A stretch of 64,000 nucleotides of DNA from Escherichia phage PSD2002, in sequence record OK335775.1; one strand, written 5' to 3'. Below the pieces are notes generated by a model. The model saw only the letters and a list, made by a program, of their open reading frames with translations. It was not told the DNA's origin and did no database searches. Below, piece by piece: positions 1,510-45,097 of the stretch; the stretch's first letter is position 1, and each line of letters opens with the position of its first letter. Made by a program: the position numbers and the translations under genes.

Positions 1510-3819
<2,310 letters not shown>

Positions 3820-38549: not shown

Positions 38550-38577
38550 TATAAATACCTCCTATACTCAGGAGGTA
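38550..38577 (+). promoter_or_regulatory. late promoter (TATAAATA) overlapping a hairpin that sequesters the gene e ribosome-binding site
   Basis: TATAAATA 38550-38557; stem TACCTCC/GGAGGTA (38556-38562 / 38571-38577) contains the SD; same arrangement as described for T4 gene e. Confidence 0.7.
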
Positions 38578-41615: not shown

Positions 41616-41826
41616 ATTGACAATTGAAGGCTCTGATGAAGCTCTGAAAAGATTTGTTGAATGGTTTAATGGACCAGGTGAACAAGACTTTCTGGAAGTC
41701 TGGGATGGCGGTCGGTGGAACGGTAAAGAAATGATTTACCCGACTACCTATATCTCCGTGCAAGGTTGGACTGAAGGCCTTCGTTTGGTAGAATATGATA
41801 TCGCAACTGGCGAGGAAGTGAAATGA
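41608..41826 (+). CDS. hypothetical protein
   Basis: 72-aa ORF. Confidence 0.45.
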   Translation: MSKLTIEGSDEALKRFVEWFNGPGEQDFLEVWDGGRWNGKEMIYPTTYISVQGWTEGLRLVEYDIATGEEVK

Positions 41827-42101
41827 TTGAAGATATAAAGGGTTATAAACCACATACCGACGATAAAATCGGTAAAGTGAATGCTATTAAAGATGCCGAA
41901 ATTCGGTTAGGGCTGATGTTTAAAGCTCTGGAAGAAGAACATGTTACTCATTATATGAACTTAGATACCGAAGAGGTTTCTGAACAAGAACTAGACCAGG
42001 CTCATGAACGCATCACCCAGATTCGTAATGCAATTGACCGTCTGAAAGAAGCAAGCATGTGGGCGTGTCGCTCTGTGTTCCAACCGGAAGAAAAGTACTA
42101 A
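41823..42101 (+). CDS. hypothetical helical protein (occupies the vs.3-vs.8 slot)
   Basis: 92-aa ORF between denV and regB. Confidence 0.45.
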   Translation: MIEDIKGYKPHTDDKIGKVNAIKDAEIRLGLMFKALEEEHVTHYMNLDTEEVSEQELDQAHERITQIRNAIDRLKEASMWACRSVFQPEEKY

Positions 42102-42107
42102 AGAGCA

Positions 42108-42160
42108 GTTTACATCTCCTGTAGACGTGGTACTATAGACCTATCAACTACAGGAGATTA
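42108..42160 (+). promoter_or_regulatory. early promoter cassette (PeSL-like), near-identical to the denV cassette
   Basis: GTTTAC-ATCTCCTGTAG-acgtgg-TACTATAGACCTATCAA-CTACAGGAGAT; GTTTAC 42108-42113. Confidence 0.65.
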
Positions 42161-42164
42161 CAAA

Positions 42165-42623
42165 ATGTCAGAAATTAATTCAGAAGTATTCATCCGCCGC
42201 AACAAATTACGTCGTCAGTTCGAAACCGAATTCCGCGAACTGAACACGTCCATCAAAAAAGCCGCCGTTAAGAGCGGAGTCCCGGCCTTCTTTATTAAGT
42301 ACTCTAATCACTTGTTGGACCGTGCTATCCAACGTGAAATCGACGAAAAATACGTTTTTGCTTTATTCAAGCAACTCCATAACCATGTTAAAGAAATCCA
42401 TGAATTTTTAATCCAGGAACCTCTGCCTGATGTAGAATCCGAAATTGTCCCTGGTAAAGTGTATCGTCCATTGCGTCTCGAAATTACCGATAAAACCTTA
42501 TGGCTAGGTATGACCGTAGACCGTAAACATCCTGATAAAGGATATTCCCTTAAATGTCGTATGGCATTTGTTAACTCTAAACGTTTAGAAGGTAAAACCA
42601 GCACGAAAGTAATTTACTTGTGA
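42165..42623 (+). CDS. regB: RegB sequence-specific endoribonuclease
   Basis: EVFIRRNKLRRQFETEFRE...HLLDRAIQREIDEKYVF...LRLEITDKTLWLG matches recalled T4 RegB. Confidence 0.9.
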   Translation: MSEINSEVFIRRNKLRRQFETEFRELNTSIKKAAVKSGVPAFFIKYSNHLLDRAIQREIDEKYVFALFKQLHNHVKEIHEFLIQEPLPDVESEIVPGKVYRPLRLEITDKTLWLGMTVDRKHPDKGYSLKCRMAFVNSKRLEGKTSTKVIYL

Positions 42624-42630
42624 GGACAGT

Positions 42631-43377
42631 ATGGAAACTATAAAATATCCATATGACTACTATAAAATAATAAATGACGCCTTATCTAGGGATACACCTA
42701 ATGATGCCTATACAGAAAAGCACCATATAATACCGAGTTGCGTTGGTGGTCCTGACACTCAAGACAATTTAGTTGAGCTTTATGCTGACGAACATTATTT
42801 GGCCCATATGTATCTAGCCAAAGCTAATCCAAACCACTATGGGTTGAATTTTGCTTGGCTAAATATGAGCTCTACTTCAAATTCAAAACAAAGGTCTTAT
42901 TTTGTAGATTCTGAAAATTATAAGTTGGCTAAAGAATCATTTTCAAAATTGCAATCTATTAATAAAATTTTATTTTTCTCTAAAAAGGAAAATAGGGCTG
43001 CTCATTCAATGGCTTTAATAAAGTATTTTGAAAAGGAAGGCTCTAAAGAACGGCTCAAAGAAATTTTAAATTCGCCAAAAGTAAAAGCTAAAATGTCTGA
43101 AAAACGGGTTAAGTATTTTGAAAATCCTGAAAATAGACAAAAATTTAAAGCCATACAAAATTCTAAAGAAACTATAGAAAGGAAAAAAGCCTCTTTGCGG
43201 AAATCCCCTATATGGCATGAACCGATGTATTCACAATTATATAAATTATGGGTAGATAATAATAAACTCAAGTGTGGAAGATTTAGTAAAATCGCAATTA
43301 AGAACGGCTTCCCTAATGTAGATTACCGAGGACTTATTGATTATGATTTTTCTAAAAAAAACTTAAATATTCTTTAA
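42631..43377 (+). CDS. free-standing HNH-family homing endonuclease (mob-like)
   Basis: HNH motif EKHHIIPSCVGGPDTQDNLVELYADEHYLAH; Lys-rich repeat region in C-terminus; AT-rich codon usage; inserted between regB and vs.1. Confidence 0.7.
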   Translation: METIKYPYDYYKIINDALSRDTPNDAYTEKHHIIPSCVGGPDTQDNLVELYADEHYLAHMYLAKANPNHYGLNFAWLNMSSTSNSKQRSYFVDSENYKLAKESFSKLQSINKILFFSKKENRAAHSMALIKYFEKEGSKERLKEILNSPKVKAKMSEKRVKYFENPENRQKFKAIQNSKETIERKKASLRKSPIWHEPMYSQLYKLWVDNNKLKCGRFSKIAIKNGFPNVDYRGLIDYDFSKKNLNIL

Positions 43378-43379
43378 TA

Positions 43380-43901
43380 GTGGCTATTATGTGTGGTTCG
43401 TTTTCTGTAAGTGCAGCAGAACCCGTATTTACAGAAACCCAGCTTGATAATTTACATTATGCGTATGCTTTCGGTGAACAATACCAAAAGTCGGGAAAGT
43501 TCAAAGAAAACCCTAATCAAAAAGGATTAGGATATATTATGGCCGGATTACTATGGCAGGAATCATCCGCCGGAATTAATCAGGGTTTAAATAAAGATAA
43601 GCACCATGCTTATGGCATGTTCCAAAATTACTTGCCTACTTTAAGAAGTCGTGTTCAACAGGTAGGTTGGAAGATGTCTGATAAAGAAATAATTCGTATG
43701 GTCCAAAAACGACAGAACAGTGCCTCTTGGGCCTACATTGAACTGTCTTATTGGATTGATGTTCACAAAGGTGACCTGAGAAAAGCGATTGCTTCTTATA
43801 ATGCGGGCTGGAACGTCAAAGTAGGCAGTAAATATGCTTCTGAAGTTCTAGAAAAGGCCAATTATCTAAAATCTAAAAAGATGTTTGAGGCGGTATATTA
43901 A
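43380..43901 (+). CDS. vs.1-like protein (lytic transglycosylase-like)
   Basis: 173 aa, GTG start per ORF track; position after regB as T4 vs.1. Confidence 0.5.
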   Translation: MAIMCGSFSVSAAEPVFTETQLDNLHYAYAFGEQYQKSGKFKENPNQKGLGYIMAGLLWQESSAGINQGLNKDKHHAYGMFQNYLPTLRSRVQQVGWKMSDKEIIRMVQKRQNSASWAYIELSYWIDVHKGDLRKAIASYNAGWNVKVGSKYASEVLEKANYLKSKKMFEAVY

Positions 43902-44258
43902 ATGATTAAGCAGATGACTATAGCGCTTATGTTGATTGCTCCGGGAGTATTAGCGTCACAAGTTTATGATAGTAATAATTCAATTGTCGAGTATGCTACC
44001 CGTACAGCAAAAGATTATTGTCATCCGAGTAATACTGAATGCATTATCGAATTCAGTTCAAAAATCACGGCTGCTTTTAAAGATGGGCAGAACGACGTAG
44101 AGCATCGACGAATGAAAGAGAAAACTCTTTCTAAAAGATACGAGCAACGTCTAAACGTTACTGAATGTATTCCATCTGATAAAAAGTACAAAGAAATGTG
44201 CGCGTCTATGGTAGACAGACTCGTTGACTCGTACAACCGAGGATTAAACTCTAAATGA
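43902..44258 (+). CDS. hypothetical protein with N-terminal signal/anchor segment (possibly vs by position)
   Basis: 118 aa; hydrophobic N-terminus MTIALMLIAPGVLAS. Confidence 0.4.
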   Translation: MIKQMTIALMLIAPGVLASQVYDSNNSIVEYATRTAKDYCHPSNTECIIEFSSKITAAFKDGQNDVEHRRMKEKTLSKRYEQRLNVTECIPSDKKYKEMCASMVDRLVDSYNRGLNSK

Positions 44259-44722
44259 TTATTGATTATATTAAGGGCGATATTGTCGCCCTGTTTCTTC
44301 AAGGTAATAATGTTGCACACGGGTGCAACTGTTTCCATACAATGGGTTCAGGTGTAGCCGGACAATTGGCTAAGGCTTATCCACCTATTCTCGCTATCGA
44401 TAAAACAACTTGTTTAGGTGATTTGGCAAAACTTGGCACGTTTACTCAAGCTACAGGTAATAATGGCCAAATTTGCTATAATTTATATACCCAATACGAA
44501 CCGGGCCCTAATCTTGATTACGGTGCTTTAGTAAACTGTATGATAGAATTAAACCGTACCGCAAAGGGTCTTTTGTTTAAACCAAGAATTTATATCCCTC
44601 GTATCGGTTGTGGTATTGCTGGTGGTGATTGGGACAAGGTTTATCAATTGATTAATTTGTTTACTCCTGATATTAATTTAGTGGTGGTAGATTATGAAAG
44701 CCCATTACCCGCATCCGTTTGA
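44255..44722 (+). CDS. macro-domain protein (ADP-ribose binding/processing)
   Basis: Motifs NNVAHGCNCFHTMGSGVAGQL and PRIGCGIAGGDW resemble macro-domain signatures. Confidence 0.6.
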   Translation: MIIDYIKGDIVALFLQGNNVAHGCNCFHTMGSGVAGQLAKAYPPILAIDKTTCLGDLAKLGTFTQATGNNGQICYNLYTQYEPGPNLDYGALVNCMIELNRTAKGLLFKPRIYIPRIGCGIAGGDWDKVYQLINLFTPDINLVVVDYESPLPASV

Positions 44723-45088: not shown

Positions 45089-45097
45089 GAAGGTAAT

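Follow-up and report, generated by a model that had tools for sequence, protein, structure and literature searches.

How an endonuclease gene comes to lie between regB and vs.1 in Escherichia phage PSD2002, and whether it is a mobile element or an old resident of that site, are the questions raised by a 64,000-nt stretch of the genome of this phage (record OK335775.1), here called the window. The phage belongs to Dhakavirus, the JS98/Bp7 group of T-even phages. A first-pass annotation of the window, made from the letters alone, had placed at 42631-43377 an open reading frame (ORF) of 248 residues with an HNH motif and had described it as a free-standing, likely mobile, selfish insertion between regB and vs.1. 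The ORF and its ATG start are indeed found there on the plus strand, and its translation includes EKHHIIPSCVGGPDTQDNLVELYADEHYLAH. Also as described, the site-specific endoribonuclease gene regB (42165-42623, plus strand; Pfam REGB_T4, 6e-69; phrog_1323) lies upstream and vs.1 (phrog_600, 9e-63) lies downstream, both on the same strand as the endonuclease gene and directly adjacent to each other in the alleles that lack it. In our view the ORF probably encodes a free-standing, MobD-like HNH homing endonuclease, carried on an 829-bp cassette that invades the regB/vs.1 junction in a minority of Dhakavirus.

Occupancy of this junction is sporadic. Among public genomes, the gene is present at the site in four phages (04086, vB_EcoM_IME540, vB_EcoM_FB and NC-G), and two metagenome contigs also carry it there, whereas an intact empty junction (at least 95% identity over its full length) is found in 47 Dhakavirus records. 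The comparison of related phages proposed in the first-pass annotation therefore finds the insert-free allele in the majority, and not a gene carried by every relative at the same site. Moreover, the same site is occupied in Jiaodavirus (Klebsiella phages) in three of about 141 records (Lion_ER11, KLB8 and Merci), the other 138 being empty; this version has the same architecture and is 50-52% identical to the window protein. A scan of IMG/VR for further carriers returned no close relative, the best match being 36% identical. In the GenBank records of IME540 and NC-G the gene already has the label 'homing endonuclease', and no open-access paper was found on an endonuclease at regB/vs.1.

Read from the alignments, the element is an allele replacement and not a simple insertion. 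A cassette-specific allele of 829 bp (42614-43442, no strand assigned) stands in place of about 95 bp of the empty junction. In a single-nucleotide polymorphism (SNP) table of five carriers against seven empties, all fixed differences fall within 42614-43442, and the BLAST break points are at 42619 and 43440. No long co-conversion tract is fixed in the carriers, the fixed differences ending at 42614 and 43442. Hence, of the earlier description as an insertion, the sporadic presence of the cassette at the site stands, but the simple insertion does not, given that the cassette recodes the end of regB and swaps the start and the signal peptide of vs.1.

At the left end, regB is homologous to the empty alleles up to 42613, and its last three sense codons and stop are then recoded without change of sense (ATT TAC TTG TGA, against ATC TAT CTT TAA in the empties). 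The recoded end and a 7-nt spacer occupy 42612-42630 (plus strand), with the regB TGA overlapping the Shine-Dalgarno sequence GAGGA of the endonuclease gene. This left junction, with its 7-nt spacer and the TGA within the Shine-Dalgarno sequence, is of the Jiaodavirus/T4 type, whereas Dhakavirus empties have a 12-nt spacer, which suggests that the cassette entered Dhakavirus from outside the genus. The base composition is a further sign of foreign origin. The endonuclease ORF has a GC content of 0.307 (0.249 at third codon positions), compared with 0.401 for regB, 0.385 for vs.1 and 0.393 for the window mean, and is the lowest-GC 747-nt stretch of the 64-kb window when this is sampled every 10 nt, in agreement with the AT-richness relative to the flanks noticed in the first pass. 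In Jiaodavirus, no difference separates occupied from empty alleles through the regB stop, the Shine-Dalgarno sequence and 'ATGAA', and in this genus the endonuclease ORF took over the former ribosome-binding site and start codon of vs.1.

At the right end, homology resumes in both genera immediately 5' of the QLDNLHYAY codons, and in both the endonuclease gene follows regB after a 7-nt gap and overlaps vs.1 by 23 nt. The replacement 5' end of vs.1 (43343-43442, plus strand) is defined by alignments and by the annotations of IME540, FB and NC-G. It begins at an ATG at 43343, 23 nt inside the endonuclease 3' end, which in the carriers with seven A in the nearby homopolymer opens MIFLKKLKYSLIAAIMCGSFSVSAAEPVFTET, a signal peptide. 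The ancestral vs.1 leader, which MIFLKKLKYSLIAAIMCGSFSVSAAEPVFTET replaces in carriers, is homologous in six genera and reads MKKVLATLLLTVSMSAYSVEPTFSNE in Bp7. The overlap of 23 nt is also present in the GenBank annotations of IME540, FB, NC-G, Lion_ER11 and KLB8. With this arrangement vs.1 would stay expressible, its start being tied to the endonuclease gene.

These junctions bear on a different history, in which the gene is ancestral at the locus and has been lost repeatedly, the polymorphism being due to deletion and not to invasion. Such a history would fit the sharing of one site by two genera whose versions, at about 50% identity, have diverged to roughly the same degree as the flanking genes. 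However, the vs.1 leader of the empty alleles (MKKVLATLLL...) is different from that of the carriers yet homologous across six genera, and a deletion could not regenerate it. Moreover, carriers amount to only 4 of 51 and 3 of 141 records, the GC content is anomalously low, and the left junction of the Dhakavirus carriers is of a non-Dhakavirus type. An ancestral gene with repeated loss is therefore highly improbable and was rejected on the homology of the empty leaders across six genera, which for the same reason makes the empty state the ancestral one.

In the window itself, the right end departs from the other carriers by one nucleotide. A homopolymer at 43354-43361 (plus strand) has eight A in the window and seven in the six other carriers, and with the extra A the endonuclease ends in KKNLNIL* (248 residues) in place of KKT* (244 residues). 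The length given in the first-pass annotation is thus correct for the window but peculiar to it, all six other carriers having 244 residues. No exact match to the 248-residue form was found in public assemblies, and the KKNLNIL tail is disordered in the AlphaFold2 (AF2) model. Also in the window only, the extra A puts a stop seven codons after the vs.1 ATG at 43343 and breaks the vs.1 frame. What is readable of vs.1 (43380-43901, plus strand) is then left with a GTG at 43380 that has no Shine-Dalgarno sequence, and the n-region of the signal peptide is missing. The eighth A may have arisen as a sequencing error in the homopolymer; otherwise, the lesion of vs.1 is genuine. Similar events are seen elsewhere at this junction: the Merci endonuclease gene is interrupted by a homopolymer-A frameshift (at about position 1833 of its locus, L008; annotated as a 206-residue fragment), and the vs.1 start of KPV15 is frameshifted (about 3305-3312 of locus L011), with five A against six in other Jiaodavirus records. 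The A-runs at the regB/vs.1 junction are recurrent sites of error or mutation.

The Dhakavirus copies fall into three allele groups, one shared by the window and 04086, one shared by IME540 and NC-G, and that of FB. The ratio of nonsynonymous to synonymous differences (pN/pS) between these groups is 0.04-0.08, with 9.5-28 synonymous differences, and the gene is under strong purifying selection and not decaying. The window and 04086 show no substitution over the 829 bp, within an identical tract that extends from 42552 to 43509, whereas their flanks are 1.6-3.8% divergent. For IME540 and NC-G, again no difference is observed in the cassette, the nearest ones being at 42557 and 43510, with flanks that diverge by 2-6%. 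The comparison of IME540 with FB shows the converse, namely near-identical left flanks (0.6-1.6%) and a cassette that is 4.3% divergent. Also, SNPs of the JS98 type lie in opposite flanks, in regB for NC-G and in vs.1/vs for FB. Among the three Jiaodavirus carriers, 0-2 differences are found in 802 bp, compared with 1.1-2.1% in the adjoining genes. The histories of the cassette and of its flanks are uncoupled, and the presence of identical cassettes in diverged flanks indicates a recent horizontal spread. This, along with the strong purifying selection, points to a functional and recently mobile element. The earlier view of a likely mobile, selfish insertion is therefore sustained by the 47 empty Dhakavirus records against four carriers, by identical cassettes in flanks that are 2-4% divergent and by the low pN/pS.

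A nuclease that is active mainly in competition between phages (marker exclusion, or cutting of competitor or host DNA), on a cassette that spreads by ordinary homologous recombination only, would account for part of this pattern. T-even phages have highly mosaic genomes, and the flanks show SNPs shuffled between carriers and empties. The reference list of a 2010 review (PMC2988022) includes work on marker exclusion by SegG, and a gene of benefit to the phage could also be under strong purifying selection. Nonetheless, in each of four independent pairwise comparisons the cassette lies at the centre of the zero-divergence tract, and the discontinuities have their boundaries within about 60-70 bp of it. 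A pattern of this kind would be expected from break-initiated gene conversion at or near the junction, and it is compatible with homing without being proof of it. Competition and homing are not mutually exclusive, and we regard competition with spread by ordinary recombination only as unlikely.

By sequence and context, the protein can be assigned to the HNH nucleases of the T4 Mob family, in the MobD lineage. In a tblastn search of 50,697 phage records, the closest named relative is T4 mobD, which the window protein matches along residues 7-236 (93% of its length) at 34% identity (E 6e-27), MobE-annotated proteins being about 31% identical to the window protein. The Jiaodavirus version is 39% identical to T4 MobD (residues 1-235). 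Moreover, the PHROG 655 'homing endonuclease' profile matches residues 9-236 of the window protein (4e-36). An exhaustive HMMER search returned 11,041 representative homologues at E<=1e-3, which cover the N-terminal 110 residues or so, and the C-terminal half is specific to this lineage because only five homologues reach E<=1e-30. The more distant homologues often carry NUMOD3, NUMOD1 or PF22083 (the I-HmuI NUMOD-like domain). The first-pass label 'mob/seg-type' is retained for its first half, the protein being of the HNH type with MobD as closest named relative. Its second half is dropped, and a Seg-type identity was rejected, as the GIY-YIG family is absent among the Pfam and PHROG matches of the window protein.

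The catalytic core of the HNH domain corresponds to residues 27-59 (YTEKHHIIPSCVGGPDTQDNLVELYADEHYLAH; 42709-42807, plus strand), as located by the family alignment, the alignments with domains in the Protein Data Bank (PDB) and the AF2 model. The residue pattern HH..(13)..N..(8)..H...H (histidine general base, asparagine, histidine metal ligand) is present in the window protein. In an alignment of 40 family sequences its residues H31/H32, N46, H55 and H59 do not vary at all or show conservation of at least 90%, and each has its aligned counterpart in the HNH domains of McrA (PDB code: 6ghc) and of a group II intron maturase (PDB code: 6me0). In the AF2 model, two strands (28-32 and 47-51) are followed by a helix (52-65), with a predicted local distance difference test (pLDDT) score above 90 for residues 28-65, a segment for which the model thus predicts the beta-beta-alpha arrangement. 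The mean pLDDT of the model is 83.5; a long helical region follows the HNH core, and the C-terminal module is modelled with low to moderate confidence (pLDDT of 52-67).

The helical region rich in lysine and arginine (residues 111-195; 42961-43215, plus strand; AF2 model) has 28% K+R and an internal repeat of about 30 residues, the copies being AAHSMALIKYFEKEGSKER and AKMSEKRVKYFENPENRQK. It is presumed to be a DNA-binding linker resembling NUMOD3, but without a match to Pfam NUMOD3 (PF07460), which at E<=10 is not found in the window protein, the Jiaodavirus counterpart or T4 MobD; no Pfam NUMOD was found for the window protein. The repeats may act in the manner of NUMOD3 even though by profile they are not members of it. 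The lysine-rich, repetitive C-terminal half described in the first pass is thus confirmed in part, the composition and the repeat being present and the NUMOD3 profile giving no match. Beyond this region, a conserved module (residues ~192-240, SPIWHEPMYSQLYKLWVDNNKLKCGRFSKIAIKNGFPNVDYRGLIDYD; 43204-43350, plus strand), common in the alignment to the Jiaodavirus version and T4 MobD, is presumed to be the sequence-specific DNA-binding domain.

Where such an enzyme would act can be approached from the empty junctions. Seven empty sites from Dhakavirus, Jiaodavirus, Tequatrovirus, Mosugukvirus, Kanagawavirus and Gaprivervirus were compared with the window and Lion_ER11, and the longest invariant run of the empties is the 13-mer ACTTTCAGTAATG, common to all seven phages of the six genera. 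Within vs.1 this run encodes T-F-S-N and is invariant at each of the four third positions as well; it belongs to the replaced segment, close to its right end. The adjacent QLDNLHYAY codons are equally conserved as protein and vary at third positions, unlike ACTTTCAGTAATG, whose invariance at synonymous positions suggests a constraint at the DNA or RNA level. Both carrier lineages have rewritten the 13-mer, which becomes GTATTTACAGAAACC in the window (43425-43439, plus strand; encoding VFTET) and TTATTTACTTCAAGT in Lion_ER11. Because it is conserved in empties and destroyed specifically in carriers, ACTTTCAGTAATG may be a candidate homing site, that is, a recognition or cleavage site disrupted in the carriers.

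A more specific proposal is that the cassette would be a self-contained 'gene-start swap' module. In this proposal, the endonuclease recognises ACTTTCAGTAATG, cuts no more than a few tens of bp from where it is inserted and spreads between genera via the conserved site, and the recoded vs.1 leader and start both immunise the carrier and make loss of the element costly. We hold this proposal tentatively and consider it rather doubtful. Cutting so close to the insertion point would be unlike most free-standing T-even endonucleases.

Several observations weigh against reading the ORF as a homing endonuclease. The first concerns the family assignment: Pfam at its default threshold gives no match for the window endonuclease, and at E<=10 PF01844 (HNH) scores 16.3 bits (E 0.011), below its gathering cut-off of 21.4. 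The Jiaodavirus counterpart (24.2 bits) is above this cut-off and T4 MobD (18.1 bits) is below it, and because T4 MobD itself scores 18.1, a sub-threshold score is typical of bona fide Mob proteins. Also, fold searches with the whole model returned no significant structural neighbour, and the 2010 review lists the activity of T4 MobD as 'ND' and its target as 'unknown' (PMC2988022). As for the population data, the heavy recombination of T-even phages could yield a mosaic of cassette and flanks without any endonuclease action, and the Merci frameshift indicates that decay of a Jiaodavirus copy does occur. Moreover, the cleavage sites of free-standing endonucleases are usually hundreds of bp away from the gene itself (PMC2988022), and a target inside the replaced leader would be atypical for them.

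Part of these observations would also be expected of an inactive or retired endonuclease that is retained by entanglement, since its deletion would remove the start and the signal peptide of vs.1. The vs.1 ATG and leader are in fact embedded in or just after the endonuclease 3' end, embedded expression signals are considered to favour retention of endonuclease genes (PMC2988022), the copy of Merci is frameshifted, and the 'ND' given for MobD in the review (PMC2988022) is in line with this explanation. However, the pN/pS of 0.04-0.08 holds across the whole ORF and not merely at its 3' end, and every HNH catalytic residue is intact. Entanglement also leaves unexplained the identical cassettes in diverged flanks of two genera and the scarcity of carrier genomes. 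It therefore appears improbable as the sole reason for the presence of the gene, and an active homing endonuclease is preferred.

For the preferred reading, the expression and the movement of the cassette could proceed as follows. The endonuclease gene would have no promoter of its own and would be co-transcribed with regB, then translated from the GAGGA Shine-Dalgarno sequence that overlaps the regB stop. In line with this, a consensus scan found no convincing sigma-70 site immediately upstream of the gene, and the T4 late promoter TATAAATA is not found near the cassette, the nearest copies being at 38550 and 45952. No hairpin sequestering the ribosome-binding site was detected at either gene start (z-scores of -0.56 and +1.22). 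A sigma-70-like match upstream of regB (TTTACA-16-TACTAT with TG; 42109-42136, plus strand), located by consensus scan only, is the likely source of a transcript that would also carry the endonuclease gene. The gene thus looks like a promoter-less cassette read through from regB, an arrangement described for mobA, mobC, mobD and mobE (PMC2988022). Overlaps with neighbouring genes and downstream expression signals embedded in the endonuclease gene are also known for the free-standing endonucleases of T4 (PMC2988022), and Edgell, Gibb and Belfort argued that the downstream promoters embedded in T4 seg and mob genes favour retention of the endonuclease (PMC2988022).

In a mixed infection, a relative with an empty regB/vs.1 junction would then have this site nicked or cleaved by the enzyme; nicking of a single strand is reported for MobA and MobE (2010 review, PMC2988022). 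Recombination-dependent repair would copy the cassette from the carrier into the broken genome. The carrier would be immune because of its recoded last regB codons and its wholly replaced vs.1 leader, including the 13-mer that is invariant in the empties. Moreover, with the start codon and signal peptide of vs.1 placed inside or just after the endonuclease 3' end, the expression of vs.1 would be preserved and tied to retention of the element.

Comparison with known systems places the element closest to T4 MobD (gene mobD, NP_049710). Homology is full-length, with 34% identity for the window protein and 39% for the Jiaodavirus counterpart, and includes an N-terminal core YTEKHHIIPSC.GG.D..DNLV.L.A.EH..AH, a lysine-rich, basic middle and a C-terminal module YxLYKLWI..N.PK.G.F...I...G.P..NY..LI. 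T4 mobD is also free-standing and co-oriented with its neighbours, and its 3' end overlaps the downstream nrdC.11 by 17 nt. However, about two thirds of the residues differ, and the Dhakavirus version has an unrelated N-terminus of 26 residues. The insertion site is also another one, as T4 mobD is flanked by mobD.1 and nrdC.11 and follows regB at a distance of about 5 kb downstream, the T4 regB/vs.1 junction being empty. T4 MobE belongs to the same family and shares the same lifestyle, its promoter-less cassette being fitted into a tight gap between genes of a polycistronic unit and closely coupled to the stop codon upstream. According to the review, MobE acts by nicking its target, and its inheritance in mixed infections is of high frequency (PMC2988022). 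It differs in locus (between nrdA and nrdB) and in target (nrdB). MobE also has an internal terminator and a separate downstream promoter, signals that were not found at the window cassette, and it leaves in place the coding 5' end of the adjacent gene, which the window cassette replaces.

Further parallels are I-HmuI as well as I-HmuII, both of them HNH nicking endonucleases of Bacillus phages in which an N-terminal HNH domain is likewise followed by an extended helical DNA-binding region. These are intron-encoded, whereas the window gene is not, and PDB sequence and fold searches gave no I-HmuI match for the window protein. The Seg enzymes of T4 (GIY-YIG, for example SegG) resemble the element in their 'intronless homing' within T-even intergenic regions and in the downstream signals embedded in the endonuclease gene, but have a catalytic fold other than HNH.

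As for the surrounding genes, vs.1 is followed in the window by vs and then by the macro-domain gene tk.4. The product of vs.1 has a weak Pfam SLT match (E 0.012) and is named 'lytic transglycosylase' in Klebsiella phage records, and it can be considered a putative SLT-like lytic transglycosylase. The tk.4 homologue (44255-44722; Pfam Macro, 3.6e-08; PHROG 'phosphatase') is kept in all relatives examined. Three genes upstream of the endonuclease, the vs.4 homologue (41823-42101) matches Pfam Acb2_Tad1_hairpin (4e-15), a family of cyclic-nucleotide sponges that counter the CBASS and Thoeris defences. Between vs.4 and regB, a segment of about 209 bp encoding a 69-residue hypothetical protein is present in IME540 (1802-2011 of its locus, L001), FB, NC-G, LQ5, IME341 and the ERZ13616879 contig, and absent from the window (42102-42164), 04086, WG01 and LHE83. 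With this segment, a second polymorphism of the presence/absence kind lies some 500 bp from the endonuclease cassette. Also, a 'putative site-specific intron-like DNA endonuclease' is located between tk.2 and tk in IME540 (5005-5707 of L001, corresponding to about 45089-45097 of the window). In the window and FB, tk directly follows tk.2, and the insert of IME540 is another sporadic endonuclease in the same cluster.

The endonuclease at regB/vs.1 is an ordinary selfish gene of T4-like phages, already annotated in GenBank as a homing endonuclease, and the finding leaves the general understanding of these elements unchanged. Its unusual detail is that it brings a replacement start and signal peptide for the downstream gene. 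Of some interest are this swap of the start and leader of a neighbour, the use of one site in two genera, the population signature of a recent spread and a prediction of the target that can be tested. With exact empty and occupied alleles in both genera, the locus offers a clean natural example of a free-standing homing endonuclease settling into a phage genome, in which the rewriting of the neighbour's start plausibly gives both self-immunity and retention. Moreover, the candidate site is short and well defined, and both carriers (IME540, NC-G and FB) and empties (Bp7, JS98 and WG01) are E. coli phages already isolated, making the locus a practical one for working out the target and the activity of the MobD lineage.

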